Shown here one piece after another: positions 20,122-33,998 of a DNA stretch of 64,000 bases. The stretch comes from Thermoproteota archaeon (GTDB taxonomy: Archaea; Korarchaeota; Korarchaeia; Korarchaeales; Korarchaeaceae). Under the pieces are notes generated by a model. It searched no databases. It was given only the letters and a program-made list of their open reading frames with translations, and was not told where the DNA came from. The position numbers and the translations under genes were made by a program. Each line of letters opens with the position of its first letter. Position 1 is the first letter of the stretch. The stretch spans positions 283,278-347,277 of the forward strand of contig JAOZFN010000007.1 in NCBI GenBank assembly GCA_027492205.1. Reading direction: 5' to 3'.

Positions 20122-21387
20122 ATGAGGGTCGCCTCCCGGGCCGGGAGGCAGCTGATTTTGAGGAGTGCAAGGAGGATATCAAGCCTGGAGTCTTTCCTTT
20201 CCCCCGAGTTTTTTGAGGGGAGTTTAGGAGAAGTTTCCCCCACCGAGCGGGGCGAATGGAGGGCCGACGCGGCCGCAGAGGTCCCGGACGTGGCTGACTA
20301 CCCAGCCTTCGCCAGGCGACTCCACAGGCGGCTGAGGCCCAGGATCGGCTGGGGCCCCGAGGAGCTGGACGAACTCCTCTGGCCGGAGCCGACGCCGGAG
20401 CTGATGGCCAGGGCCAGGTTCCTGCTGGAGAGGGCCGGTCTAGATGAGAGTGGGGTCAGGAAGGCGGTCAGGGCGATGTTCGGGAGGAAGGGGGTCAGAG
20501 CGCTCGAGGCGGGGGCCAGGCTCAGGATCGGGTGGGTGGAGAAGGCCTTCCTCTACGAGAGGGCCTACGAGGTCACGCAGAGGGTGATGAGGGAGCACCC
20601 CGACTGGTGGGCCAAGAGGGTGAGGCGCGCGGTTAGCGAGGAACTCGGCATGGAGATGCCGCTGAGCACGGTCTACTGCTGGATGAAGAGGGGGAATCGA
20701 CCGAACGTGCTCCCGCTGAGGATGTGCCCCGCCCTGGGGACGGTGATGGGGATCGCGCTGAGCGACGGGGCCAAGACGGACAGCGCCAGGCTCAGGGTGA
20801 AGGACAGGGACTTCGCGGGGGCCTACGCGAGGGCCCTGGAGGAGGTGTCCGGTAGGAGGTTCGAGGTCAGGGGGCGCGGGGGGAGATACGAGGTGTTCCT
20901 CCGGGGCTCCCCGATACTCGAACTTATGAGGACGGGGCTGTGGAAGGTAGTGGCGTACCTGTATCCCTCTGAGTTCCTGGCGGCGCTGTTCAGTGGGGAC
21001 GGTTGGGTAACCCCGCAGCTGAACATCTGGGGTCTTCGACCCTCAATAGGGTTCGTGAACAGCAACCTGAGCCTCGTCGGCTTCACAGACTGGCTGCTGA
21101 GGAGGTTCTACGGGATAAGGATGGGATGGCTCCTTCAGGAGAGTGAGGGTGAGGTTCAGGTCATTCGAGGGCAGAGGGTCAGGGTGAGGGCCTCCTACAG
21201 GATCTACACATCAAACACGAGGTTCGTGGAAATCTACGCAGAGAGAATTGGCTTCGTGATAGAGAGGAAGCAGAGGATGCTGGAAGATCTGGTGGATATC
21301 TGGCGTCGCTTCGAGCCGAAGGATCGCCCTGAGGAGTTTAAGAGACGATACGAGAAAATCAACGGGAGGTGGGTTCGTAGGCATTGA
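20122..21387 (+). CDS. Free-standing LAGLIDADG homing-endonuclease-family protein with an N-terminal HTH
   Basis: Two LAGLIDADG-like helices 'VMGIALSDG' and 'FLAALFSGDGWV'; 'IGFVNSNLSLV', 'ERIGFVIERK'; HTH 'PLSTVYCWM'. Confidence 0.8.
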   Translation: MRVASRAGRQLILRSARRISSLESFLSPEFFEGSLGEVSPTERGEWRADAAAEVPDVADYPAFARRLHRRLRPRIGWGPEELDELLWPEPTPELMARARFLLERAGLDESGVRKAVRAMFGRKGVRALEAGARLRIGWVEKAFLYERAYEVTQRVMREHPDWWAKRVRRAVSEELGMEMPLSTVYCWMKRGNRPNVLPLRMCPALGTVMGIALSDGAKTDSARLRVKDRDFAGAYARALEEVSGRRFEVRGRGGRYEVFLRGSPILELMRTGLWKVVAYLYPSEFLAALFSGDGWVTPQLNIWGLRPSIGFVNSNLSLVGFTDWLLRRFYGIRMGWLLQESEGEVQVIRGQRVRVRASYRIYTSNTRFVEIYAERIGFVIERKQRMLEDLVDIWRRFEPKDRPEEFKRRYEKINGRWVRRH

Positions 21388-21420: not shown

Positions 21421-21524
21421 TGGTGGACCGGGCGGGATTTGAACCCGCGAGCCTCCCGCAGATTAGGCCGGCCTAAAAGGCCAGCTTGCCAAGCGGGCGC
21501 TCTACCAGGCTGAGCTACCGGCCC
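21421..21524 (-). tRNA. tRNA-Ala(GGC) with a 26-nt canonical 37/38 intron (21461-21486) and encoded CCA
   Basis: GGGCCGG acceptor stem with G3:U70, anticodon arm CCCGC-UU-GGC-A, T-loop GGUUCAAAUCC; BHB helix UUGG/CUAA and intron hairpin GCUGGCC/GGCCGGC; TATA-like TTTAATT about 30 nt upstream. Confidence 0.96.
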
Positions 21525-21780: not shown

Positions 21781-22209
21781 ATGAGGGACGGCCTCAGGCG
21801 CCTCCTCCTCTGGATAGTCCGCGAGTACGAGACCAGGTACCGCAGGGGCATCACCGTGACCAGGCTCATGAAGCTCCTCTACATGGTCGACCTGGAGCTG
21901 AGAAGGAGGGGGTTGCCCACCTCGGGCGTCAGGTGGGTCAGGTGGTACTACGGGCCCTTCTCCAGGGAGGTCATGAGCGGGATTAACGAGCTGATCGAGG
22001 AGGGGGAGCTGAGGAGGGAGGCCGTCGTCAGAGGGGACAAGATCATAGGGGTGCTCAGCTCGGAGAGCGGGGCCAGGCTGGAGCCGGAGGTCGAGGCGGT
22101 CGCCAGGAGAGTTGTTGGAGAGCTCGGAGGGCTGAAGTTCGAGAGGCTGCTGGACAGGGTCTACGCCACCTTCGACGAGGACAAGGACCTGGGGGACGAG
22201 GTGCCTTGA
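21781..22209 (+). CDS. SocA/Panacea (DUF4065)-like antitoxin
   Basis: 'TRLMKLLYMVD...RWYYGPFS'. Confidence 0.8.
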   Translation: MRDGLRRLLLWIVREYETRYRRGITVTRLMKLLYMVDLELRRRGLPTSGVRWVRWYYGPFSREVMSGINELIEEGELRREAVVRGDKIIGVLSSESGARLEPEVEAVARRVVGELGGLKFERLLDRVYATFDEDKDLGDEVP

Positions 22210-22607
22210 AGGCGCTGAGGCTCGTGAGGCTGGAGGGCCTGATCGGGAAGTTGGAGGAGCTGGTCAGGTCGGGGAGAGTGCCAGCATTCGAGGACACTGG
22301 GCCAGAGGACTACCCGGAGATGGACAGGGAGAGGCTCGAGGATCTCCTCGCGGAGGGCATCTACCACCTGGAGGAGGTCCCCGGGCGGATTCCGGCGCGG
22401 GCGGAGCTGGTGCTGAGGACCACGCTGGGGCTGCTGAGGTCTGCCAGAGAGGCCGACGACGAACTCCTGAGGAGGGCTCTGTTCATCTACGCGTTCTGCG
22501 AGGCCCTGGTCAGGGTCAGACCCAAGTCTAGCAAGCTGCTGAGGGCCTGCTGGGAGAGGATCGACTCAGAGGTGAGCAGAATTTCCGACGCCGTCTTCGC
22601 GCAGTGA
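22206..22607 (+). CDS. Hypothetical helical protein
   Basis: 4-bp overlap with the upstream gene; 4-nt gap to the PIN-like gene. Confidence 0.65.
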   Translation: MKALRLVRLEGLIGKLEELVRSGRVPAFEDTGPEDYPEMDRERLEDLLAEGIYHLEEVPGRIPARAELVLRTTLGLLRSAREADDELLRRALFIYAFCEALVRVRPKSSKLLRACWERIDSEVSRISDAVFAQ

Positions 22608-22611
22608 GGTC

Positions 22612-23307
22612 GTGGTGCTCGACACCTACTACTACTTCAGGCCCTGGTCACTGGTTGAGCTGAGGGGGCATCTTCGTGGAAGGAGGGTGATCCTTATAGC
22701 TCCTCATCAGCTACGCACGATTCTGAGCCATCTAAACACTAGGCGGGTGGAGATCATCAACAGGTGGGATAGGAGGATCGTGGAGCGAGGTAGGGGGAGG
22801 CCCAAGCCCTGGCGAAGTCTAGCCAGGAAGCTTAAGGATGCGGATCTACTGTGCGCACTCTACCTAGGGTGGGAGCTCTCAAGAGAGCCCTTAGGTAGGA
22901 TGCTCCGCATGAAGTCGGGGCTCAAGATAACGCGAGGAGATGTCGCTGACCTGAAGTATGGGCTGGACGAGTCTATAGAGGAGGAATCCCTGCGGGACTT
23001 TTTGAGGGAGCTGATTCGCGATCTCACCTCGGCTGATCTCGAGATCAGGAACGTAACGGTGAGTTCCAGGGAGGTCTCCCAGGTGAAGGCCAGGCTCATT
23101 GAAGAGCTGTGCGCCGCTCAGAATTGTCGTAAGAGCAAGCCCGACAGTGAAGATCTGATTCTCCTGCTGACCATTAACAAGCTGCGAGAGCGAGTGAGAG
23201 TGTATGCGATAGAGAGAGATAGGGGTGAGTGCTTCGCCTGCGCTCTGAGACATCTTCTCAAAACAGACCAAGCGTGGCGAGACAAGATTAGGATTGGACA
23301 GCTTTAG
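22612..23307 (+). CDS. Divergent PIN-domain protein
   Basis: N-terminal 'VLDTYY', C-terminal 'PDSEDLILL...AIERD'. Confidence 0.55.
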   Translation: MVLDTYYYFRPWSLVELRGHLRGRRVILIAPHQLRTILSHLNTRRVEIINRWDRRIVERGRGRPKPWRSLARKLKDADLLCALYLGWELSREPLGRMLRMKSGLKITRGDVADLKYGLDESIEEESLRDFLRELIRDLTSADLEIRNVTVSSREVSQVKARLIEELCAAQNCRKSKPDSEDLILLLTINKLRERVRVYAIERDRGECFACALRHLLKTDQAWRDKIRIGQL

Positions 23308-23738
23308 ATCCCAGCTTGCCTTACTATCTCCTCGTACCTCTTCTTCGTTAGCCTCTCTCCAGCTACGGTGACGAATCTTTTGGGCCTATACGGCTTTGAA
23401 TACCTCCTTAGGCCCCTCAGCGGTATGACTAGAAGCTTCTTTGCCCTGGGCTTTCCCCTCACGTAGGCCGCCAACTCCTCTCTGTTGAGCATCAGCCTCC
23501 TCCCGTACTTCTTCACCGCCTCTTCTGGCTCAAGCATCTCCACCGCCTCCGCCGTCCCCTCTCCCACTATAGCCCTCACGTCCCCAGAGGCGTAGAACAG
23601 GATCTTGGAGCCTGGCCGCAGGTCCTTGTAGACCGTTGGCACCTTCACGAATACCGTCCTACCTTCGTCGAATATCCTGGAGATCAGCTCGCCGGGGAGC
23701 GGGAATATGGCTCCCACGATCTCATCGTTAGATGACAT
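23304..23738 (-). CDS. DUF365 / ASCH-PUA-like protein
   Basis: 'FPLP...RIFDEGRTVFVK...LRPGSKILFYAS...IVGEG'. Confidence 0.8.
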   Translation of the reverse strand: MSSNDEIVGAIFPLPGELISRIFDEGRTVFVKVPTVYKDLRPGSKILFYASGDVRAIVGEGTAEAVEMLEPEEAVKKYGRRLMLNREELAAYVRGKPRAKKLLVIPLRGLRRYSKPYRPKRFVTVAGERLTKKRYEEIVRQAGI

Positions 23739-23788: not shown

Positions 23789-26700
23789 CTAGGCAGTTCC
23801 TTCGAATATTCTCAGAGTCTCTTCGAGGGCTTCCAGCTCTTCTGAAGTTAGGTCGTAGAGCTGGGCTACCAGTTCGTCAATCTCGTCCTCAACCTCTCGT
23901 AGGGCTTCGATATCGCCTTCAGCGGCTAGGTTGTGAGCTTTTTTAGATAATTCCGCAAGATTCAAGTGAAGTGGGTTCTCTGTATCGAATTTGGGTACTC
24001 TTACATGTTCTAATATGTGCGTGGAGATCGCCGTTTCTATCGTGTACCCCGCGACTATCGCCCTTACAGGCGCCGAGTTCAGGACTGCAGATACGTAATG
24101 TGCCTCCAACTCGTTATTGAATGGTATGTAGGTAAGCTTGTGGTCTGGTAAGACTGGCTTCCTTCCTAAGAGTGGGTGTTCAATCGGTCCGATTACGGCG
24201 GCCTGAAAGAGGCCTTTCCCCGAGATCCTGCCAGAAACTTCTCTCCAAGCAACTTTAAATGTACTTATTGCTGGTTCGGCATTAAATATCCAGTAAAATG
24301 GCGGTATTCCTTCAATATTTTCAAGCCGTCTATCCCTGTAAGGTCTCAGCTTGGATCGGTAAGGCTCAGTGTTTCTTCTAACGAGTTCGTCAAAAAACTC
24401 AATGAAATATGAATAAGTCAGGGGATATTTAGTCCTCATTTCGACGGATGGTACTACCCTACCATCTTTTGTGAGGGGGAGTATCATGTAAGTAGATGGG
24501 TAAGCAATCCATCTCTTGAGGTCTCTCCCTCTAACTAGAGGGTAAACCAGATCGGGCTCTACGACCGCTTCAACTGATTTTAGTTTCTTCTTGCTAATCT
24601 CTGACATGTTTCTGACTAGAATTCCTTCAGGCTGACTGGAAAGTAGTTGGACCCAGTACACGCCATTTAGCCCTGGATGAACCCCTACGTAAGCTTTGTA
24701 GCTAGACTTACCTAACAGCTTGTAAATGCCCATAGATGCCATCTTACTAGTCAAAATCCAGGGGGCGGCGGCATCATAGCTGGTATTGTCTTTCTGTATC
24801 GGTTCTAATATCATCTCAACGCGGTTTGAAAGACTGGCGACCTCTTCAATGTCGGCAGCGTTGGGATCGTATCCTTCTCCGGATTTTGACCAAACGATAC
24901 ACCTTACTGGAAAGTGAGATACGCCCTTTTTCAAGACTATTAGGGAGGTTCTGTTAGTAGCCCCCTCGAACGGACGCATTTCAACGAGGTCGTGTATAAC
25001 GATTAACTCACACTTAGTTGCGAGGAATCGTCTGAAGCTGGATCCAGCTTTAGTCTTGAATACCGTGAAGGGGATTAACATGCTGAGCCTACCATTTTCA
25101 TTCATGTATCTCTCGACGGAAGTAGTCACGAACAACATGGCGATATCTCTGTTAATTCTACCTATCCCCCTCCCCCCTCCCTCAAAGAGACCGAACTTTG
25201 CCCACAAGTCTCGGGTGACCTCCCTGTAGTCCTCAGGAAGGCTCTCCCAGTTGATCCACGGGGGGTTCCCCACAACGTAGTCGAACCTTCCGACGAAGAG
25301 AGGCGCAAAGGAGTTTGCGAGTATCCTGAGCCATATCCTATCCTTCCCCTCTTCCTCCAGCTCCCTCAGCCTGTTGAACAGCGCAGCCAGGGCATCCACC
25401 TCTTCGGATGTGCACTCTACCTCCCTGGCCAGAAGCTGCCTGAACTGCTCCTCAGGATACCTGTTCCTCACGCAGTGCTCCATCACCCTGAGCACGTTGG
25501 CCAGCTCGCCCCTCTCCACCACGCCGGTGGGGACCTCGAACTCCCCGACAACCGTCCTGAGCACGTACGAGGACTCCAGCAGCCTCGTCCTCTGCTCCAC
25601 CAGGATCGAGTCGCAGAGGTACACGGGTATCACTACCGGTTCCCTCCTCTCCCTGATCAGCGGTCCCAGGGTGAGTAGGTAGTTCGCCCTGGCCGCTATG
25701 ACGGCCAGTGGGTTGAGGTCGAAGCCCACTATGTTCTCCGTCACCTTCTCCAGCACTTCCGCGGGGTCTAGGAACTCCTCCTCCGCTCTCTCCCTGACCC
25801 TCTTCAGGGCTAGCACCAAGAATGTCCCGGAGCCGCACGCGGGGTCTAGGAGCCTCTTGCTCGGGTCGCCGTCGTAGCCGACCTCGTTCAGCACAAGCTC
25901 CGCTAGCCAGTCAGGAGTGTAGAACTCGCCGAGGTCGTGTCTTATCCTCCTCGGAACCAGGTTCTGGTAGAGTTCCTTGAAGAGGTCCCTCACCCTCTCG
26001 GGCTCCAGCTCGGCCGTCCCTACCTCGTAGTCTGACAGCCTCTGCACCACCCTGGCCAGGGCCCGCGCCAGCTCCCCGTCCCACTCGTTGAGGTACCACG
26101 AGAAGTAGTCTGCCTCCAGGAAGTTCAGTATTCCCAGCTGCCTGAAGACGCCCCCGTCCTCCAGCCTCGCCAGCTCGTCCCTCAGCCCCTCTGCGGAGGA
26201 GTAGTACGCGGACTCCAGCCTCCTCCAGTAGGACTGGATCAGCGAGTCGCCGTAGAGCGCCGCAACCTCGGCCGCTATCAGCTTCATCAGCAGGGCATAG
26301 TAGGTGTGGATGGCGAAGAGGAGCCTCTCCGGATCGGCGTCCCTCATCTCGTACTGCCTCTGGAGCCCCTCTATCTTCCTGCGGGAGTAGGCGCAGACCT
26401 GAGAAAAGACCCTCCTCCAGTCCTCGAACAGCACCTCTGTCCTGGGAGATTGCGGATTCGAGAGCCTCTGATAGAGCACCCTTATCGCGTGCCTGGCTAC
26501 GTCGCTCCTGGGGCCGAAGTCCGAGATGAGGAACTGAGCGTCCAGCGGTTTCCTCCTAAGTCCTCTTAAGGCCTCCACGAGCTTGGAGAGAGCCCTGGCG
26601 GAGACGGAGTAGGGACCGTCACTGAGCCACTGCTTGTCTCGAGAGCGGTACCTCACGAAGCCAATCTGCCGCCCGTCTAGTACGACGCCGAAGTACCTAC

Positions 26701-27034
26701 TGAACTCAGCCTCCCTCCCCTCAGCCAGGATGATGATGTAGCTCCTGACCTGCGCCGCGGCGCCGGTGAAGCCTGAGCTGCTCGAGAGCGTGCCAGGCCG
26801 CTTGTACTCAATGACGACCTTCCCGTACAATGCGTCGGGCCTGACGCCCTCTGCGAGCGTCCTCTCGTGGGCGGGCTCCCAATGCAGCTCCAGCGCCTCG
26901 AAGACCTCCTTTAAGACGGCCTCGACTCGCGTCCTGAGCTCGGCCTCGTTGCGCGACTCGTCCGCGGCCCTGAGTATGGAGGCGGCCACCTGATCTAGGT
27001 CTATGGGTTTAGCTGGCAAGGCCCTCGGGGGCAT
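23789..27034 (-). CDS. Type IIG restriction-modification enzyme (REase + N6-adenine MTase + TRD)
   Basis: N-terminal 'RPDALYGKVVIEYK' (PD..ExK); 'LGEFYTP', motif I 'LDPACGSGTF', motif IV 'GNPPW'; C-terminal TRD. Confidence 0.93.
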   Translation of the reverse strand: MPPRALPAKPIDLDQVAASILRAADESRNEAELRTRVEAVLKEVFEALELHWEPAHERTLAEGVRPDALYGKVVIEYKRPGTLSSSSGFTGAAAQVRSYIIILAEGREAEFSRYFGVVLDGRQIGFVRYRSRDKQWLSDGPYSVSARALSKLVEALRGLRRKPLDAQFLISDFGPRSDVARHAIRVLYQRLSNPQSPRTEVLFEDWRRVFSQVCAYSRRKIEGLQRQYEMRDADPERLLFAIHTYYALLMKLIAAEVAALYGDSLIQSYWRRLESAYYSSAEGLRDELARLEDGGVFRQLGILNFLEADYFSWYLNEWDGELARALARVVQRLSDYEVGTAELEPERVRDLFKELYQNLVPRRIRHDLGEFYTPDWLAELVLNEVGYDGDPSKRLLDPACGSGTFLVLALKRVRERAEEEFLDPAEVLEKVTENIVGFDLNPLAVIAARANYLLTLGPLIRERREPVVIPVYLCDSILVEQRTRLLESSYVLRTVVGEFEVPTGVVERGELANVLRVMEHCVRNRYPEEQFRQLLAREVECTSEEVDALAALFNRLRELEEEGKDRIWLRILANSFAPLFVGRFDYVVGNPPWINWESLPEDYREVTRDLWAKFGLFEGGGRGIGRINRDIAMLFVTTSVERYMNENGRLSMLIPFTVFKTKAGSSFRRFLATKCELIVIHDLVEMRPFEGATNRTSLIVLKKGVSHFPVRCIVWSKSGEGYDPNAADIEEVASLSNRVEMILEPIQKDNTSYDAAAPWILTSKMASMGIYKLLGKSSYKAYVGVHPGLNGVYWVQLLSSQPEGILVRNMSEISKKKLKSVEAVVEPDLVYPLVRGRDLKRWIAYPSTYMILPLTKDGRVVPSVEMRTKYPLTYSYFIEFFDELVRRNTEPYRSKLRPYRDRRLENIEGIPPFYWIFNAEPAISTFKVAWREVSGRISGKGLFQAAVIGPIEHPLLGRKPVLPDHKLTYIPFNNELEAHYVSAVLNSAPVRAIVAGYTIETAISTHILEHVRVPKFDTENPLHLNLAELSKKAHNLAAEGDIEALREVEDEIDELVAQLYDLTSEELEALEETLRIFEGTA

Positions 27035-27182: not shown

Positions 27183-28292
27183 GTGGGCAGCAGATTCGGA
27201 CAAACAGGTATTCTGATACCCCGAACTGTTGAAAAGAGAAAATATAACTGTTCTAGGGCAACTTTTATAAGGAATATAGCTGGAAACAAGAGTGTTATGC
27301 AGGGGAACCCTTGGGCTAATCCAGGGATGGCCGTTAAAAAAGTACTCCTAAATACGGGTCTCTACCGGAAGGTCGAGGAGGAGTTCTTCGACCTGTTTGA
27401 CCTGAAGACCAGCGGCGCCGAAGCAGTGCTGCTGGCCGCATATGGAAGTCACAGGTCGTTCTACCTTGTCGATGAAGACAGGGTGGCCATACCTCCCCGG
27501 GAAGAGGACCTGGTGGTTTGTCCTCCGGTGCCGCTTAGAGAACTGAGCCCAAGAGACGTTGTAAAAAGCCCAATGCCGACGGCTTGGCCCACTCACGATT
27601 GGGAACTCCTGAGAAGACTCCTAACCGGCGAGAAGTACGTTTTGCTGCGAGATGTCCGAGATGTCAGGAGTCTCCTAGAAAGAGTCAAGTCCGCAGGGAT
27701 TGAACCTACTGACGTGCTCGTGGCTCCGGTTCTTTCAGATTTCAGGCCGGACTGGGAACCCGGCTTTCTAGTGTACCTTGCCGGATTGGCCTTGAGGTCC
27801 CGGGGTTACCTAGTGGCAGGGGAGGGTCCCGGTCCGCTGAGGTTCTTCGGTCCCGACCTGTGCGCCTTCAGAACCAGTCAATTCTGCGAGGGAGCCTTTC
27901 TACTGGAGCTTCTCCTAGGAAAGAAGTTGAAGAAAGGTTATTCAGAAGAGAGCGCTTGCGTTATAGAGGTGGAAGCTCAAAGGAGAATTTTAGACAGTAA
28001 GCACGGCGTGGCCCAGGCCCTGAAGTACGTTAACTGGAGTGAAGGCCGTCTGGGCAAGGCTTTTGTCGCTGGCGCATTTCTCGAGGCTTATCAAATAGAA
28101 GAGGCAGTAAGGCGAGGATGCGGCGTTATATCTCTATCACCAGATGGCGATATTGTGTTTATAGATGCCAGAGATCTCTCCATCCAAGAACTCCAGCACG
28201 AATTTCTACAGTACGTGAGTGATGTAATCTCTCAGCTTGAATTACGCGCTGAGAGGTGTCCATTCTTACCTCGAAGGGAAGAGGTATCCTAG
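27183..28292 (+). CDS. Hypothetical protein with a C-terminal PD-(D/E)xK-like nuclease domain (likely start ATG about 27328)
   Basis: 'LRSRGYLV...GPDLCAF...VIEVEA...GVAQALKY'. Confidence 0.55.
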   Translation: MGSRFGQTGILIPRTVEKRKYNCSRATFIRNIAGNKSVMQGNPWANPGMAVKKVLLNTGLYRKVEEEFFDLFDLKTSGAEAVLLAAYGSHRSFYLVDEDRVAIPPREEDLVVCPPVPLRELSPRDVVKSPMPTAWPTHDWELLRRLLTGEKYVLLRDVRDVRSLLERVKSAGIEPTDVLVAPVLSDFRPDWEPGFLVYLAGLALRSRGYLVAGEGPGPLRFFGPDLCAFRTSQFCEGAFLLELLLGKKLKKGYSEESACVIEVEAQRRILDSKHGVAQALKYVNWSEGRLGKAFVAGAFLEAYQIEEAVRRGCGVISLSPDGDIVFIDARDLSIQELQHEFLQYVSDVISQLELRAERCPFLPRREEVS

Positions 28293-28293
28293 A

Positions 28294-29338
28294 TCAGACA
28301 TCTACAAGTTGACGGTAGTCTCTAATTCCGGCGGCCCTATCCAAGGCAACTCCTACTATCCTCTTTACCTCTCTGAGGTTTCTCTCCAGCTGATCGAAAG
28401 CGCTCATCCAAGGATTCCCGGTCTTGCGTTCCTTGGTAAAGTAGAGGAGCGTGTACCCTTCACTTCCCGAGTACACCTCTAACTTCTTCACCCTCATTGA
28501 GCTTTCTCTCAAAGCCCTCACGTACGCATCGACGACCTTGTGGTAGGGGACTTCACCTAGCCTGAGGCGCTCCCTCCATAGAGCCTCATAGGCGGGCCCT
28601 AAGAACTTGGCACACTTGCTGGCCGGATCGGGTGGTCCTTTGAATTCTCTCCCTAGTGCCCTAGCTAGACCCACATGATTCAGCAGTACCATGACATCGG
28701 CTCCTCTGTCTACCAAGTCCATTAGGGTCTCATAGTAAACATTCGCTCCTTCGTTATCTGCGAACACTAATGCGTGCTCTCCTCTCTCCGGAGCGACTTC
28801 CTGCCAACCTTCGTTACAATCACCGTGACGAATATCCACGCGAGGTATCGCTTGCTCGCCATTAGTCTCGGAGCCTATGGGCGTCACAAGATCATTCTCA
28901 AACATCCACTGAACCCTGGCCCTCAGGGCGTCTGCTCTGGCCTCTTTGATCTCAAATCCAACTACCTCATCAAAGGGTCCGTTTAGCTTCCCGCTGAGAA
29001 TCAACGGGGTTGACCCTACTAGAAATTAGGGGCTCCCCGCTGGCCTCGAGTTTGTACAGCCTACAACCAGCTAGAAGATCAATGAACTTTATTTTCCTCG
29101 GCCAGATCGTTCTCCTTTGCTCTACACGTTTTCTCTGCTGGGACCTCATCACCCGTACATAGACATCGGCCATCCATGCCAGCGCGACGAGTTTTACGGC
29201 AGTTTTAGGCGAAGTTACCTCGTAGAACTCTTCTGAAACGCGGGATAGTTCTTTCCCTAACGTGATTATGTTCTCAAACTTAGAGGAAAGCCAGTCTAGG
29301 AGACTCGGATACCTGCTCCTTACTCTACGCAATTGCAC
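28294..29338 (-). pseudogene. tcmP: TcmP-like (three-Cys-motif partner) SAM-binding protein, split by a single frameshift near 29022
   Basis: 'TAVKLVAL...Y...KFIDLLAGC', then in the +1 frame 'LVGSTPLIL...GFEIK...HGDCNE...LVFADNEG'; one extra T in CTAATTTCTAGTA would explain the split. Confidence 0.7.
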
Positions 29339-30297
29339 CTGACCCCGCTCCACTCGGGATACGTGCCAGGCTCGGGCAGGAGATCTGAGAGCCTGCGCCA
29401 CATCTCCGGCGTCTCCTTACACAGGGCAACGTCGCCTGAGTAGCCTAGCCTCCTCAGCTCCTCCAAAACGTACCTGTACATCTCCTCCCTCAGGTCAGGC
29501 TTGATCTTCAGTCCCCATCCGGTTTTCTCCCCGCCTCTCAGGTATTCGTGCCAGCTTCTATCCTTGGCAAACTTAACGGTCTTCCACAGTCCCCTGAGCG
29601 TCCCCAGAGTGATCCTGCTTGGCTCAAGCTCGTACCTGTGCAGCGCGTCTTCCACCAGCTTCGAGTACTCCCCCCTCCACCCAGGGACCGGTATCATGGG
29701 GTCGAGCCTCAGCCTGAGCTCGAAGCCCTCTCTCTGCACGAGCCTGGCGGCGGCCATCCTGTCCTCCGGGCCAGGGGTCCCCCTCTCGTAGAGCCTGGCT
29801 GGCTTTGAAGCGTTGACCGAGAAGCTGACTACTATAGCCTCCCTTGGGCCGCTCCACTCCAGTAGAGGCTGCACGTGCCTCACGCCGCCCTTGGTAACCA
29901 TAAGGAACCTGTGGCCTGGGTGGGTCTCTAGGAGATCTGAGATCACCTCTAGGAGCAGGTGAGTCCACTCAGGAATGGCCAGGCTGTCGCTCAGCTCCCC
30001 TGTATTCAGGAGCAGCCTCTCGCCCCTGGAGTCGGCCCAGGACAGGAGGTCCTCTAGCTCCGCCTTCAGCCCCTCTAGGTCCTTGAGCCTAGGGGTCTTG
30101 TTACCGAAGAACGTGCCCTGGAGATAGCAGTAGGAGCAGCCAAACGGGCAGCCGTTCGCCCACTTCAACTCCCAGAAGTGGGGGCAGACGATGTCGGAGG
30201 GCGTCTTGGCGAAGTAGACCACGTAGCGGGAGTTCTGCCACTTGAGTAGTGGCGACATAGGTTTTAGCTCGATGAAGTCCTCCTCCGTTCTCCTCAC
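29320..30297 (-). CDS. Spore photoproduct lyase (SplB)-like radical SAM protein
   Basis: CxxxCxxC 'GCPFGCSYCYLQ', 'NTGELSDSL', 'VTK', 'SFSVN', 'RLDPMIP', 'LCKE'. Confidence 0.85.
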   Translation of the reverse strand: MRRTEEDFIELKPMSPLLKWQNSRYVVYFAKTPSDIVCPHFWELKWANGCPFGCSYCYLQGTFFGNKTPRLKDLEGLKAELEDLLSWADSRGERLLLNTGELSDSLAIPEWTHLLLEVISDLLETHPGHRFLMVTKGGVRHVQPLLEWSGPREAIVVSFSVNASKPARLYERGTPGPEDRMAAARLVQREGFELRLRLDPMIPVPGWRGEYSKLVEDALHRYELEPSRITLGTLRGLWKTVKFAKDRSWHEYLRGGEKTGWGLKIKPDLREEMYRYVLEELRRLGYSGDVALCKETPEMWRRLSDLLPEPGTYPEWSGVRCNCVE

Positions 30298-30332
30298 GGC
30301 CTCCTCTTCTGACTATAATGTGAGTGGATCGT

Positions 30333-32237
30333 TTAAGCGTTTGCAAGCCTAAGTAGGCAAAAGTATTCTCTGATCATCTCCAGCCGCTCTCTTGACTGAG
30401 GGGTCTCTATTAGGAAAGATTTGCCCGTCCCCCCAGAAGATAGGATAACGTCGCAGATCGTCTCTTCTATGAATCGCCTCCTATCAGAACTCTCGGAGAG
30501 TTCCTCCCAGGACTTCCTCTGCTCTTTAGAGAGGAGGAGTGACTTCCCGGTCTTAGACAGGGAGCCGAGACCCTCCCTTTCCAGAATCCTGAGCACCGCC
30601 ATGAACCTCCCCACCGGAACTTGGGGAGGTGTGAGTCCGCTAGAGGAGTACACGGCGTCGAGTCTCGAGATCAGTATCTTATAGAGGGTGGAAACGCGCT
30701 TGCTGCTCTTGTCTTTTACCTCTCTCCTGAGAGCCTCGAGGAAGCTGGAGACTGACGCTCGCAGCAGGACGCGACTTTTCTCTTCTTCCCCTCCCTCTGC
30801 GACTACCTCTTGGACGGCTTGGGGGGTCAGCAGGAAGGCCAGAACCTCTCTGAGATCCCTTTCAAATGCTCCATACTTATCCAGAAACTCTGACCTCCAC
30901 TCGCCCCTTAGGAGCAGGCTGAGCTTGAGCAGGAAGGGGTCCACCTCTATAATCCCAAGGGCATGGCCAGCCTTGGAGAACTCGGCCTCTAGTGCTGTCC
31001 GCTCATCTGGATACCATTCAGCAATGGAGAACAACAGAACTGGAACATTTCTAAGCATGTTCAAGAGCTGATCCCGGTCTCTCTGGGATCTCTGCCAGGA
31101 CCTCCCCGTCTTTATCTCCACAGCGATGCGTTGGACGAGTCTGTTGCCCTTCTCTCCGGCTTCCGGTTTGTAGGTCCAGACGAGGTATTGGGCATCGGTG
31201 ACGGCCCCTGGCAGCGACAGCCTGTCCCTCGAGAGAGTCGCCAAGTAGTCTAGCTTGGTCTCCCCGAGGCTCACAGTGACTGGAATAGCCCTGAGTTTCT
31301 TCCACATGAACTCCCTCCAGAGCTCTTCCACCTGCCTGCCGAGGTCAACGCTTGATCCCATCTCGGCTTCTGGATCAATATTATCCAGGATCTCCTGAAG
31401 CATTTCGGTGATGTACTTTATCACACCTCCTATCTCCCACATTAAAGCTCTGTCCTCGGCTTTCTTCCTCAGCAAGGGGTAGAGCACGCTGAAGTGTTTG
31501 TCCAGACTCACGCGATATGAATCCTTGTAGGCCCTGAAGAGGGCCATTACCTTGAGGGTTGCGTCCCGGGCGGCCTCAACTCTCTCGTCGTCAGGCATGC
31601 TCAGCCTGTACTCTCTAGACCTCGCAAGGAGTCTATTAGCAAGCGCCCGATCTTTCTCAAACTCGGCTCTGACTCGTTTTGACATCATTAGGATGGCTGA
31701 CCCTCTTGGCGGTCTATCCGACGAGCCCTCCGTTAGCCACCGAACTATATCTGCCAGATCCTCAAACCTCTTCCGGTCCCCCCTAGCCAAATCCCCAAGA
31801 AGCTGGTCCAATTCGTCCACTATCAGTACGACAGGCTTCTCTGCAGGTATAGAGACGATCTGTTGTAAAATCAATTCTCTTACGTCACACACCGGATCTA
31901 GGAAGACCCTCCTGACCTCGACTCCCCTCTTCTGAAGGAATTCCTTCAAGACAAAGCCCAGCTGAGACTTGCCGGATCCATACTCCCCGACAACCGAGAC
32001 TATAGCCCCACGCCAGTCTCTATCCTTGAGATAATTGAAGATAGCCCCATTTACTTGTCTGAGCCTTCTGACGTTTACGAAAAAGTCCTTGAGTTGATCT
32101 AGGGGGAACTCAATGGGCCTCCTATCAGACCACGACTCTAGTACCTTGCCTAGCGAGCTGGGGTTGTACTTGGAGTATGTTTTAGAGAGGTTATAGAACT
32201 CCTCCCGTGCCTTGGAGAGAGATTCAGGATGAATCAC
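30333..32237 (-). CDS. AAA+/P-loop ATPase fused to a PD-(D/E)xK-like domain (start GTG 32237, 4-bp overlap with the upstream gene)
   Basis: Walker A 'GEYGSGKS', Walker B 'VLIVDELD', Arg-finger-like 'ALANRL'; 'VTDAQY...IAVEIKTG'. Confidence 0.8.
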   Translation of the reverse strand: MIHPESLSKAREEFYNLSKTYSKYNPSSLGKVLESWSDRRPIEFPLDQLKDFFVNVRRLRQVNGAIFNYLKDRDWRGAIVSVVGEYGSGKSQLGFVLKEFLQKRGVEVRRVFLDPVCDVRELILQQIVSIPAEKPVVLIVDELDQLLGDLARGDRKRFEDLADIVRWLTEGSSDRPPRGSAILMMSKRVRAEFEKDRALANRLLARSREYRLSMPDDERVEAARDATLKVMALFRAYKDSYRVSLDKHFSVLYPLLRKKAEDRALMWEIGGVIKYITEMLQEILDNIDPEAEMGSSVDLGRQVEELWREFMWKKLRAIPVTVSLGETKLDYLATLSRDRLSLPGAVTDAQYLVWTYKPEAGEKGNRLVQRIAVEIKTGRSWQRSQRDRDQLLNMLRNVPVLLFSIAEWYPDERTALEAEFSKAGHALGIIEVDPFLLKLSLLLRGEWRSEFLDKYGAFERDLREVLAFLLTPQAVQEVVAEGGEEEKSRVLLRASVSSFLEALRREVKDKSSKRVSTLYKILISRLDAVYSSSGLTPPQVPVGRFMAVLRILEREGLGSLSKTGKSLLLSKEQRKSWEELSESSDRRRFIEETICDVILSSGGTGKSFLIETPQSRERLEMIREYFCLLRLANA

Positions 32238-32962
32238 AGCTCCCACCTCGCCGAGATCTTGGCCCTGCTGGGTATCACGAGCTCGCAGTAGGTCTCCCCG
32301 GTCACCCTGTCCTGCCACGTGGAGAACACCCTGCCCCCGAGACCGGGCGGTAACCTGTCTAGGTCCTCGGCGGACTCGAGGACGTCCCTGTAGGGCTCCA
32401 AGACCGGTATCCTCACGAGTCCCCGCTTCCAGAGCGACACTAGGATGTCCCGCACCCCGTCCCCGTACACCCTAGCCAGCGTGCCGTAAGTCACCGCACC
32501 CCTAGACCTCACGTCCTCGAGCACGGCCTCCTCCAGGGAGGTCGTGAGCACGGGAACCCTCCTCTCCCGGACGAGGTTGAGCTCAACCAGCCACCTGGCC
32601 AAGGCGCGGGCCTCCGTAGTCGTGACCTCGACTCCGAGTGAGGCGAGCGCCGCGGACAGAGAGCCCGGAGTGAGGGGGACGGAACTCCGGGTGAGCGCCC
32701 CTACGGCCTCGGCGAGCCTGAACTCCCTCATTATGGCGTTTGCTAGGGACTCTCGGAAGTCATCGAGGGACCTTAGGTCGTCGACTCTTTGGAGCACCCA
32801 CTCGAGGGTCTTGACGTACCGTGAGGCCGTCCTGGTGGACTTCACCCCGAGGATCTCGGCCGCGTCCTTCTCCCCCTTCAGCCTGCTTCTAGCGAGGGCA
32901 AGTCTGTAGAGTCCACTAATCCTGGTGGGATAGAAGCGGCTTGACCGGCGCATGATCCGCAC
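32234..32962 (-). CDS. Multi-HTH DNA-binding protein
   Basis: 'AAEILGVKSTRTASRYVKTLEW' HTH; further wHTH-like segments 'LARWLVELNLV' and 'LVSLWKRGLV'. Confidence 0.7.
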   Translation of the reverse strand: MRIMRRSSRFYPTRISGLYRLALARSRLKGEKDAAEILGVKSTRTASRYVKTLEWVLQRVDDLRSLDDFRESLANAIMREFRLAEAVGALTRSSVPLTPGSLSAALASLGVEVTTTEARALARWLVELNLVRERRVPVLTTSLEEAVLEDVRSRGAVTYGTLARVYGDGVRDILVSLWKRGLVRIPVLEPYRDVLESAEDLDRLPPGLGGRVFSTWQDRVTGETYCELVIPSRAKISARWEL

Positions 32963-33172
32963 CTCAGAGGGCCCCTAAATATTGGAAAAAGTTTGTGCAT
33001 CAGTCTGGGGATTGCCTATCTGGACTGAGCGGAGAGCGCGTGATCACGACATCGTCCCTCCGAAGGATGCGCAGAAGCCCAAGCCCGCTGAATCTGCCTT
33101 GGTTCAGGGGCGCTGGACGGCCGCTGCGTTCACGCGGGCCGCGCTCCCTGCCGAGCCAACCCAACTCTTTTT

Positions 33173-33186
33173 GTAGTACGTACTAC
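33173..33186. promoter_or_regulatory. Perfect palindrome upstream of vapB (likely autoregulatory operator)
   Basis: gtagtacgtactac followed by ctacccac repeats just before ATG 33199. Confidence 0.6.
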
Positions 33187-33198
33187 CCACTACCCACG

Positions 33199-33438
33199 AT
33201 GGGCGAGGTCGTCAGGGTCACGAGGAAGTTTCAGATGACGATCCCCAGGAGGGTAAGGGAGGCGCTGGGGATCAGGGTGGGCGATAGGCTGGAGGTGGAT
33301 GTCGAGGGAGATCGAATCGTCGTGAGGCCCCTGAGGCCCAGGGTAGAGGACCCGGTGGAGGCGCTCCTGTCGCTTGTGAGGGAGCCCGTGGACGTGGATG
33401 CGGTGAGGCTCGTAGAGGAGTCCTGGGGCGAGGACTGA
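33199..33438 (+). CDS. vapB: AbrB-family antitoxin
   Basis: 'VRVTRKFQMTIPRRVREALGIRVGDRL'. Confidence 0.9.
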   Translation: MGEVVRVTRKFQMTIPRRVREALGIRVGDRLEVDVEGDRIVVRPLRPRVEDPVEALLSLVREPVDVDAVRLVEESWGED

Positions 33439-33440
33439 TC

Positions 33441-33998
33441 TTGGGAGGCGCGGTCCGAGGGAGCCCGTGGAGGGCGGGGTCCGAGGGTGAGGGGGGGCGA
33501 GAACTAGTGGAGGCCTATGTGGACACGAACGTATACGTCTACGTGGCCCTCAGGCACCCGGAGTTCGGCGAACTCTGCGCGCGCATACTGAGGGCCGTTG
33601 TGTCCGGCGAGCTGAGGGCCGCCGGTTCCGACCTGGTGGCCATTGAGCTCCTCGGCTCCCTGGCCAGGGTGGGCCCCGAGGTGGCCAGGGGCGCGCTCGA
33701 GGCCTACCTGGCGATGCCCGTCAGGAGGCTCGAGGTCGACGAGAGGGTCCTCAGGGCGGCCGCCCTGATCAACGGGGTGGTGAACGTCGGTTACGACGCG
33801 ATCCACGCCGCGCTCATGCTCCTGAACGGGGTCGGAGCCGTCGTGACCAACGACCTGGGGGACTGGGTCAGGCTGGCCAAGAGGCTGACGGACGTGGCCT
33901 CAACAATCGAGGAGGGTGAAATCCAGGTGAGGTCCCGAGAGCTGGCGGTGATCAGCCCGAGGTCCTTCCCCCGGCCCGTGGAGGTCGGCTCGGCGTGA
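33441..33998 (+). CDS. vapC: PIN-domain toxin VapC
   Basis: 'YVDTNVYVY...E...YDAIHAA...VVTND'. Confidence 0.88.
   Translation: MGGAVRGSPWRAGSEGEGGRELVEAYVDTNVYVYVALRHPEFGELCARILRAVVSGELRAAGSDLVAIELLGSLARVGPEVARGALEAYLAMPVRRLEVDERVLRAAALINGVVNVGYDAIHAALMLLNGVGAVVTNDLGDWVRLAKRLTDVASTIEEGEIQVRSRELAVISPRSFPRPVEVGSA

Follow-up and report, generated by a model that had tools for sequence, protein, structure and literature searches.

Four genes and two pairings

We analysed a stretch of 64,000 nucleotides from a korarchaeal genome (Thermoproteota archaeon, assembly GCA_027492205.1, contig JAOZFN010000007.1, positions 283,278 to 347,277 of the forward strand), which is called the window below, and in particular four genes that follow one another on its minus strand between positions 28294 and 32962. 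The most upstream, taken from the list of open reading frames (ORFs), encodes 242 aa (32234-32962) and is the partner of an ATPase gene. The longest ORF of the ATPase encodes 661 aa (30333-32318), and 634 aa remain if translation starts at GTG 32237 (30333-32237). This start is likely because the database protein P0122 has 634 aa and residues 1-30 of the structural model are of low confidence; with it, the 242-aa gene and the ATPase gene share a GTGA overlap at 32234-32237. The ATPase stop is followed after a gap of 35 nt by the co-oriented gene of a radical S-adenosylmethionine (SAM) enzyme of the spore photoproduct lyase (SPL) family (29320-30297; 325 aa, PF20903 and PF04055), which is apparently intact. 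The last gene encodes a TcmP-like protein and is split by a frameshift into two ORFs (28970-29401 and 28294-29004). From its likely start, GTG 29338, the TcmP frame shares 19 nt with the 3' end of the radical SAM gene (29320-29338). The layout reported in the first-pass annotation of this DNA, with four co-oriented genes, the GTGA overlap, the 35-nt gap and the terminal overlap, was thus confirmed from the ORFs.

That annotation took the four genes for one system. We favour another explanation and consider it fairly probable, namely that the stretch is the junction of two independent two-gene cassettes. The radical SAM and TcmP-like genes form cassette 1, which would act on DNA and whose copy in the window is probably inactive; the 242-aa gene, which was described as encoding a helix-turn-helix (HTH) protein, and the ATPase gene form cassette 2.

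The first line of evidence is the pairing of the radical SAM gene with TcmP in other organisms. A scan of one genome per species yielded 37 loci with relatives of the radical SAM enzyme (33-90% identity), and a scan of metagenome contigs yielded another 38 (L088-L125), giving 75 external loci. BLAST and clustering placed a TcmP homologue in 27 of the 37 genome loci, nearly always adjacent to the radical SAM gene, and a hidden Markov model (HMM) built from the partner proteins recovered the same 27 loci and, marginally, L031. Of the 10 genome loci lacking TcmP, four (L006, L012, L038 and L040) lie on contigs that break off within the radical SAM gene or immediately next to it. The 12 closest metagenome loci (L088-L099, at least 34% identity over most of the protein) have TcmP adjoining the radical SAM gene in 10 cases, and the two TcmP-less loci in this group are contigs of 1452 and 1546 nt. 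The weaker metagenome matches (L100-L125) have TcmP in L102 only. This distribution suggests that the partnership marks one clade of the SPL family. Adjacency of TcmP to a three-Cys protein of radical SAM type, the company in which TcmP is usually found, is thus seen both in the window and in the genome and metagenome loci.

The two genes are found in convergent orientation, with the radical SAM gene followed by TcmP, or with TcmP followed by the radical SAM gene. The archaeal hosts include Bathyarchaeia, Methanomethylicota, Asgard and Thermoplasmatales metagenome-assembled genomes (MAGs), and the bacterial hosts include Dehalococcoidia, Chloroflexia, Ignavibacteria and one Syntrophaceae MAG. 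Pairwise identities of the two proteins are correlated across 21 loci (r = 0.72, a value reached in 0 of 2000 permutations), which fits inheritance as a pair, the measure being inflated by related hosts. These comparisons of sequence support the radical SAM and TcmP genes as a true functional pair that is conserved and widespread.

The second line of evidence is that the two cassettes are not found together elsewhere. In the single system first proposed, an HTH regulator and an ATPase-nuclease restricting unmarked DNA would act together with the radical SAM enzyme and TcmP as the modifying proteins, and co-occurrence of the genes in other genomes had been set beforehand as the test. When this test was run as a neighbourhood search, homologues of the HTH-like gene and the ATPase were found in 0 of the 75 external radical SAM loci. 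Conversely, radical SAM or TcmP genes were found within about 8 kb of the HTH-ATPase pair in 0 of 10 fetched loci of the sister genus. Within the phylum we counted 43 genomes, including 21 of the sister genus and 4 others of the window's genus. The ATPase is present in 19 of them, comprising 17 of the 21 sister-genus genomes and none of the 4 other genomes of the window's genus. The TcmP-type radical SAM gene is present in 4 of the 43 and in none of the 21 from the sister genus, and TIGR04474, the TcmP model, finds a match in 3 of the 43. Only the window genome has the radical SAM gene and the ATPase side by side.

The HTH-like gene and the ATPase do keep together. The 242-aa gene stands directly before the ATPase gene in all 10 fetched sister-genus loci, and clustering and alignment showed both genes again in a more distant locus of genome G037 (L074). 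The neighbours in several of these loci are a major facilitator superfamily (MFS) transporter, an encapsulin-ferritin fusion and a short-chain dehydrogenase/reductase (SDR), a housekeeping context. In a relative of the window's own genus (G009; L012, contig C166), the radical SAM gene is 90% identical and lies beside the same MazE-PIN genes, and other genes stand upstream of it. Because the cassettes do not co-occur and the relative has different upstream genes, we consider the four-gene operon a local juxtaposition, and the HTH-like gene and ATPase a separate, lineage-restricted pair that is independent of radical SAM-TcmP. The tight co-oriented packing speaks for a single four-gene system, as do the NTPases found beside the pair elsewhere, namely a ParA-like protein (L012), SMC-like ATPases (L009 and L011) and helicases (L007, L013 and L014). 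Against the counts above, such a system is largely refuted, and we regard it as highly improbable. In L012 (1177-2450), the position that the HTH-ATPase genes have in the window is occupied by a 139-aa ORF that belongs to no known family, together with the gene of a ParA/MinD-like ATPase (AAA_31, CbiA).

Proteins of the two cassettes

The radical SAM enzyme matches PF20903 (SPL) with 49.4 bits and an E-value of 4.2e-13, which passes the gathering cut-off of 27 bits, and PF04055 with an E-value of 7.9e-8, in keeping with its earlier description as SPL-resembling. It falls far short of the equivalog models, with 59.3 bits against a cut-off of 400 for SplB (TIGR04070) and 32.2 bits against 437.55 for TIGR03886. 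The cluster motif CPFGCSYCYLQ aligns its C50, C54, C57 and Y58 with CMGHCHYCYLQ of PDB 4fhc, and CxxxCxxC-Y-L-Q is kept across the aligned family (alignment A1), together with four extra conserved cysteines, C38, C293, C321 and C323. A profile comparison with the solved SPL structures (4fhc, 4fhe and 4fhg) gave an E-value of 1.9e-20 over the radical SAM core (SPL residues 112-284). The Cys residue that is changed to Ala or Ser in the variants 4fhe and 4fhg, which we take to be the donor of the hydrogen atom back to the repaired thymine, aligns to Glu101. This residue is invariant in 27 of 27 sequences of A1 and in 21 of 21 of alignment A6. Because the TIGR04070 score is far below the cut-off and the donor position is an invariant Glu, the sequence identifies the enzyme as SPL-like and not as SplB, so the earlier proviso that it might be an ordinary photolesion-repair SplB is settled in favour of a distinct enzyme.

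These features bear on the possibility that the enzyme carries out housekeeping repair of DNA lesions, as the counterpart of SPL in a thermophile, with TcmP as an accessory DNA-binding subunit and without a role in defence. The membership in the SPL Pfam family, the profile match to solved SPL and the retained Tyr after CxxxCxxC would all agree with such a role. We consider it very unlikely, because the position of the hydrogen-donating Cys has become an invariant Glu, the scores lie far below the SPL equivalog cut-offs, and the gene is found in only 4 of 43 phylum genomes. Moreover, it lies in a variable island of lower GC content that is absent from 3 of the 4 other same-genus genomes, and its recurrent neighbours are restriction-modification (RM), EVE and ParB_N genes.

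Near-length homologues of the radical SAM enzyme numbered 892 at an E-value of at most 0.001, and the best 120 of them come mainly from archaeal metagenomes. No match to a PADLOC model was obtained with three of three proteins tested (the window enzyme and two relatives). Paralogous SPL-type genes lie side by side in four loci (L005:1651-4997, L006:643-2717, L093:341-3627 and L029:3281-5138); loci with two such adjacent paralogues carry a single TcmP, and L029 has none. The window genome (G000) itself has further SPL-family paralogues on contig C4 at 131421-131900 and 74228-74821 (L002 and L003, 33% and 31% identity), with no TcmP within the available flanks of about 1.3 kb.

A +1 frameshift between 29026 and 28970 divides the TcmP-like gene in two. 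Its N-terminal fragment in frame A (28970-29338, minus strand, likely start GTG 29338) comprises the helices of the N-terminus and, as FIDLLAGCR, a degenerate form of the DxFAGxG motif, and BLAST matched it to the TcmP genes of L025, L021 and L004. The C-terminal fragment in frame B, which is +1 relative to frame A (28294-29025, minus strand), contains GSTPLIL, GDCN and FADNEG, the last corresponding to the family consensus FIDPxG, and it is this fragment that the HMM matched. A four-letter step across the frameshift gave a read-through protein of 340 residues, P0001.

The identification of this protein as TcmP-like stood in part. TIGR04474 (cut-off 53 bits) did not match the fragments or P0001 even at an E-value of 10, Pfam returned no match for the fragments or the read-through, and the C-terminal fragment matched PADLOC PDC-M41A weakly (E = 0.0019, 16 bits). 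The HMM built from 21 partner proteins (alignment A4), with the window protein excluded, matched the C-terminal fragment with an E-value of 2.3e-16, and all 10 TcmP relatives tested passed the TIGR04474 cut-off with 63-117 bits. Since the partners pass TIGR04474 and their HMM finds the C-terminal fragment, the assignment is right by transitive homology. The window protein is a divergent but clear homologue of TcmP that falls outside TIGR04474 at the level of the model. In the sister genus, genome G021 has a TIGR04474 match of 72 bits (contig C70, 31882-32400) and no SPL-type match at an E-value of 1e-30; the partner of its TcmP may be a different three-Cys protein.

Residues invariant in the TcmP family occur in three motifs: the Asp and the two Gly in DxFAGxG, the Ser in GSP, and the Asp in D-P. 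The window protein has Arg at the second Gly of the DxFAGxG loop, which is invariant in A4, and Asn at the Pro of D-P, which is at least 90% conserved in the family. Judging from the +1 frameshift and the loss of these two motif residues, the window copy is probably inactive or was recently inactivated. The frameshift is either young or an assembly error. Parts of a 2-kb stretch here were found in three public sequencing runs (shares 0.07-0.15), none of them listed as RNA. In two Chloroflexia MAGs (L036 and L037) the radical SAM and TcmP genes each lie in several frames, which suggests assembly frameshift errors there rather than real breaks.

The structural model of the TcmP partner from L004 (mean pLDDT 90.7) gave RlmJ and a DUF519 protein as the best PDB matches (E = 1.9e-8, TM 0.43-0.53), followed by other class I methyltransferases. 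The TcmP sequence profile matched RlmJ weakly (E about 0.1), the motifs D-x-x-A-G-x-G and G-S-P-L-I-A being common to both. On the model, TcmP has an RlmJ-like class I SAM-methyltransferase fold, and the earlier description of it as a SAM-binding protein agrees with this fold.

Since RlmJ is the 23S rRNA m6A2030 methyltransferase, we considered whether the pair modifies rRNA or tRNA, with TcmP as an N6-adenine methyltransferase of RlmJ type and the radical SAM enzyme processing the base further. The best structural and profile matches of TcmP, to RlmJ and DUF519, favour such a function, and EVE domains, which recur near the pair, bind modified RNA bases as well. We find it improbable all the same. 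Occurrence in 3 or 4 of 43 genomes is very patchy for a function in the translation machinery, the neighbours include ParB_N, a ResIII helicase, type IIG RM and phospholipase D (PLD) nuclease genes, and DNA is the substrate of the enzyme most closely related to the radical SAM enzyme. In addition, the PADLOC candidates that combine TcmP with DUF5131, treated in the last section, were collected from genes lying inside BREX, DISARM or type I RM systems.

For cassette 2, the ATPase has a Walker A motif GEYGSGKS and a Walker B motif VLIVDELD. Its AlphaFold model (mean pLDDT 83.4) had ORC4, Cdc6 and Aeropyrum ORC2 as top Foldseek matches (probability 1.00, E from 5e-6 to 4e-4). The AAA+ domain is therefore modelled as ORC/Cdc6-like, a likeness of fold that implies no initiator role, and the earlier call of a P-loop ATPase holds. 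No Pfam family reached its cut-off; AAA_22, AAA_16 and BrxC_BrxD matched below threshold around Walker A. The family is small, with 16 clusters, all of close relatives, among 5.8 billion proteins.

A PD-(D/E)xK-like motif had also been noted in the C-terminal part of the ATPase. D375, E401-x-K403 and Q417 are invariant in 12 of 12 aligned sequences, and residues ~344-432 (661-aa numbering) are modelled as four strands, a helix and a strand. This is consistent with a PD-(D/E)xK-like core in its motifs and order of strands. The assignment is tentative, as fold and profile comparisons gave no match specific to this region and the domain atlas gave weak leads (Mrr_cat and PDDEXK_3 clusters, 0.78-0.81). 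The C-terminus looks winged-helix-like. The multi-HTH character given to the 242-aa protein was not borne out: it has no match in Pfam, NCBIfam, PADLOC or PDB, and its winged-helix leads in the atlas are weak (at most 0.86, all below 0.9). From the modelled domains, a reasonable guess is that cassette 2 encodes an NTP-driven DNA-binding nuclease.

Neighbours of the pair and the surrounding island

The genes that recur beside the radical SAM-TcmP pair deal with DNA or modified bases. In 8 genome loci and about 8 metagenome loci, the gene immediately preceding that of the radical SAM enzyme encodes a ParB_N protein (E = 3e-34), and in P0113 and L094 the two form a single fusion protein. An EVE-domain gene precedes TcmP in L013, L015 and L017 and precedes the radical SAM gene in L088. 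A ResIII/DEAD helicase is adjacent to genes of the pair in L007, L013 and L014, and a type IIG or Eco57I-type enzyme is encoded nearby in the window, L004, L013, L014 and L018. The order in L013 is EVE, TcmP, two small ORFs, type IIG enzyme, radical SAM enzyme and helicase, and that in L014 is type IIG enzyme, radical SAM enzyme and helicase. In two Bathyarchaeia loci (L009:4516-8930 and L011:4491-8930), the genes of an SMC/Rad50-like ATPase and a 137-aa protein lie between TcmP and the radical SAM gene. This ATPase has 645-652 aa, an N-terminal GPNGTGKT, a CPLC hook and a C-terminal signature region. The four genes in these loci are all on one strand and look like a four-gene subtype. L004, the closest full pair (67% identity), is convergent and has a PLD-nuclease protein with an Eco57I-type methylase on one side and an HSDR_N protein on the other. 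Subtypes can thus be defined as ParB_N - radical SAM - TcmP, EVE - TcmP - radical SAM, TcmP - SMC-like - 137 aa - radical SAM, and type IIG - radical SAM - helicase.

Because these recurrent neighbours deal with DNA or modified bases, the best reading of the context is a role of the pair in DNA modification or defence. The part of the original proposal that assigned such a role to the radical SAM and TcmP proteins is thereby kept, and the part that made the ATPase-nuclease a member of the same system is dropped. We infer that the pair works on DNA. TcmP would bind SAM and engage the target base, which it may methylate. The radical SAM enzyme would then use a 5'-deoxyadenosyl radical to take a hydrogen atom from base or sugar, and would install or process a covalent mark. 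The variable accessory proteins (ParB_N, EVE reader, ResIII helicase, SMC/Rad50-like ATPase and type IIG RM enzyme) would bring the pair onto DNA, recognise the mark, or act against DNA that lacks it.

In the window, the pair lies within an island that supports the defence setting suggested earlier. The GC content is ~63-70% over the window and falls to 52-58% at ~22-32 kb. Other same-genus genomes align up to a tRNA-Lys (UUU) gene (21425-21511, minus strand), which marks the left edge of the lower-GC variable island, and resume from ~33167, with little aligned between; the island with the radical SAM gene is absent from 3 of these 4 genomes. After the tRNA come a SocA/Panacea-domain antitoxin-like gene (21781-22209, plus strand; 142 aa, PF13274, E = 5e-7), a 133-aa ORF that overlaps it and has no family match (22206-22607, plus strand), a 231-aa ORF, a DUF365 gene, a type IIG gene and a 369-aa ORF. 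The two cassettes follow, then a MazE/AbrB-type antitoxin gene with a PIN-domain toxin gene (32995-33998, plus strand; PF04014, E = 1.2e-14, and PF01850, E = 3.7e-9) at the right edge, and another PIN gene. The junction of the cassettes thus falls in a variable island of defence and toxin-antitoxin genes that borders on tRNA-Lys in a genome of korarchaeal type.

Two neighbours named in the first-pass annotation were verified. The type IIG RM enzyme of Eco57I/MmeI type (23789-27034, minus strand; 1081 aa) matches PADLOC PDLC03630 (REase_MTase_IIG) with 1090.9 bits over practically its full length (residues 15-1079 on model positions 10-1100 of 1100) as well as Pfam Eco57I and N6_Mtase. The DUF365 protein (23304-23738, minus strand; 144 aa) matches PF04033 with an E-value of 1.4e-16 and, weakly, PDC-M11A/B. 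The 369-aa ORF (27183-28292, plus strand), which lies tail to tail with the TcmP-like gene, had been called nuclease-like; this found no support, as the ORF gave no match in Pfam, NCBIfam, PADLOC or PDB. A homologue of this ORF (43% identity over 192 residues) adjoins TcmP in L018 (5627-6657, minus strand), where it is in two pieces, so that the family recurs beside TcmP in two distant archaea. The Panacea gene and the 133-aa ORF (21781-22607) may be a toxin-antitoxin pair at the left edge. Directly before the tRNA gene, a 421-aa ORF (20122-21387, plus strand) has a weak match to LAGLIDADG_3 (E = 0.0054), below the cut-off.

An island of this kind could also mean that the pair is cargo of a mobile element and serves the element, either through a DNA modification that protects it against host restriction or as an addiction module. 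Three observations lean this way: a DUF5131-TcmP pair lies between the immunity repressor and integrase genes of phage Easley, the phyletic spread is patchy and crosses domains, and toxin-antitoxin genes flank the pair in the window. On the other side, a search of 2.9 million viral contigs, limited to two peptide patterns, brought up no relative of the SPL-type enzyme, no integrase was seen among the island genes of the window, and no att-like direct repeats linked to tRNA-Lys were found around the island. Furthermore, prophage genes between repressor and integrase are often defence genes. We therefore hold a function in the service of a mobile element to be unlikely.

Several points weigh against the explanation we favour, that of two juxtaposed cassettes of which the first acts on DNA and is inactive here. 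With respect to inactivity, a 239-nt contig from a related strain spans the N-terminal fragment, and 6 of its 7 listed differences are synonymous third-position changes (chance 0.007), so that this frame was under purifying selection until recently. The frameshift itself could be an assembly error, and public contigs leave 28830-29030 uncovered. With respect to the pair, L007, L014, L028, L029, L031 and L039 carry the radical SAM gene without a clear TcmP. A complex prediction for the L004 pair (alignments A6 and A4) returned a score of 0.00, which is no answer and counts neither for nor against binding. With respect to DNA, the substrate is read from the context of the genes, the closest solved relative of TcmP, RlmJ, is an rRNA methyltransferase, and EVE domains are able to recognise modified RNA as well. 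With respect to the two cassettes, the PD-(D/E)xK assignment draws on motifs and strand order only, and the 35-nt gap and co-orientation make co-transcription or a local coupling of the radical SAM and ATPase genes possible. As other loci have a ParA-like, SMC-like or helicase NTPase, it is also conceivable that the AAA+ protein fills an 'NTPase slot' beside the pair.

A further extension is possible, if doubtful: the pair may be a widespread immune module of archaea and Chloroflexi in which radical chemistry writes or erases a new covalent mark on DNA bases such as thymine or N6-methyladenine. ParB_N or EVE would then be the loader or reader, and RM enzymes, helicases or SMC-like ATPases would use the mark to distinguish self from invader. 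If so, it would be a second radical SAM route into prokaryotic immunity besides the viperins, and a new source of DNA hypermodification enzymes. Should the pair simply modify DNA, radical SAM chemistry would be added to the DNA modification and restriction systems, and a first function would fall to TcmP as well as to the related DUF5131 pair, both of them common in prophages and RM islands. The radical SAM-TcmP family is worth experiments, for which the window copy with its broken TcmP gene is a poor choice. The locus also carries a caution for annotation, as tight co-oriented packing within a defence island does not make one system.

Comparison with known systems

The ATPase of cassette 2 resembles AAA+ proteins of Orc1/Cdc6 type in its Walker A and B motifs and its winged-helix-like tail. 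It differs from them in an inserted domain with D375, E401-x-K403 and Q417 and in following the gene of a 242-aa partner. Archaeal AAA+ ATPases fused to domains of restriction endonuclease fold do exist, as in Pfam Arch_ATPase with DUF234. BREX came into question as well, because the locus places the gene of a small protein of DNA-binding type before that of a large P-loop ATPase, with a PglX-like type IIG methyltransferase in the vicinity. The methyltransferase is, however, a full-length type IIG enzyme and not PglX. BREX models gave sub-threshold matches that did not extend beyond the Walker A region: BrxA had an E-value of 0.012, BrxC_BrxD reached 12.3 of the required 22.2 bits, and BrxD matched a relative with an E-value of 4e-5. 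We rejected membership in BREX, as no component matched at model level, PglZ not having been sought separately.

TcmP shares its fold best with RlmJ and DUF519 (4BLV, 7P9I and 2OO3). Unlike these proteins, to which it is 13-15% identical, TcmP has an additional conserved N-terminal helical region, a D-P-x-G motif and a radical SAM neighbour, and no rRNA role is implied by the likeness. The radical SAM enzyme has in common with SplB (TIGR04070; 4FHC) the radical SAM core, the CxxxCxxC motif followed by Tyr-Leu-Gln, and Pfam PF20903. It differs in its N- and C-terminal regions and in the conserved C38, C293, C321 and C323; its family pairs with TcmP and occurs in archaea that do not sporulate.

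In open-access papers and bioRxiv, we found no function for TcmP, which appears there only as a name in gene tables, and no description of a system combining an SPL-type radical SAM enzyme with TcmP, ParB_N or EVE. In one such table, TcmP stands two locus tags away from Hna, a defence gene of Sinorhizobium meliloti.

The closest catalogued relatives of cassette 1 are the PADLOC candidates PDC-M30 and PDC-M41. TcmP relatives match PDC-M41A and PDC-M30A with E-values of 1e-20 to 1e-12. In Gordonia phage Easley (L086, record 29182-31049), the gene of gp39, a TcmP-like 'methyltransferase', is convergent with that of gp38, a PF07505/DUF5131 protein, and the two genes sit between the immunity repressor and the integrase. 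The DUF5131 protein matches PDC-M41B with an E-value of 1e-111 (368.8 bits) and PDC-M30B with 1e-106. Because the TcmP relatives match the A models and the DUF5131 protein the B models, these model matches suggest that PDC-M30 and PDC-M41 consist of TcmP and DUF5131. According to the preprint on 'guilt-by-embedding' (10.1101/2024.01.29.577857), the candidates number 145, are untested, and derive from genes found within BREX, DISARM and type I RM systems.

Like these candidates, cassette 1 is a two-gene module of TcmP and a three-Cys enzyme of radical SAM type, found in or next to RM systems. It differs in that an SPL-type enzyme takes the place of DUF5131 as component B. This enzyme is larger (~325-360 aa compared with ~250 aa for DUF5131) and has the four additional conserved cysteines, its pair has ParB_N, EVE, SMC-like and ResIII partners in addition, and its hosts are mainly archaea and Chloroflexi. 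A profile of the radical SAM enzyme compared with one DUF5131 protein gave a likeness at the level of the motif only (hhalign E = 0.05, probability 1%). In a table of RadicalSAM.org, DUF5131 and SPL are subgroups of one Megacluster-5. The first-pass annotation did not recognise the combination as a named system. For the pair this goes too far, as TcmP with DUF5131 is already listed under PDC-M30/M41; the SPL-type enzyme itself has no PADLOC match. Cassette 1 is the archaeal and Chloroflexi counterpart of TcmP and DUF5131, and its SPL-type pair is a new variant of these catalogued candidates.

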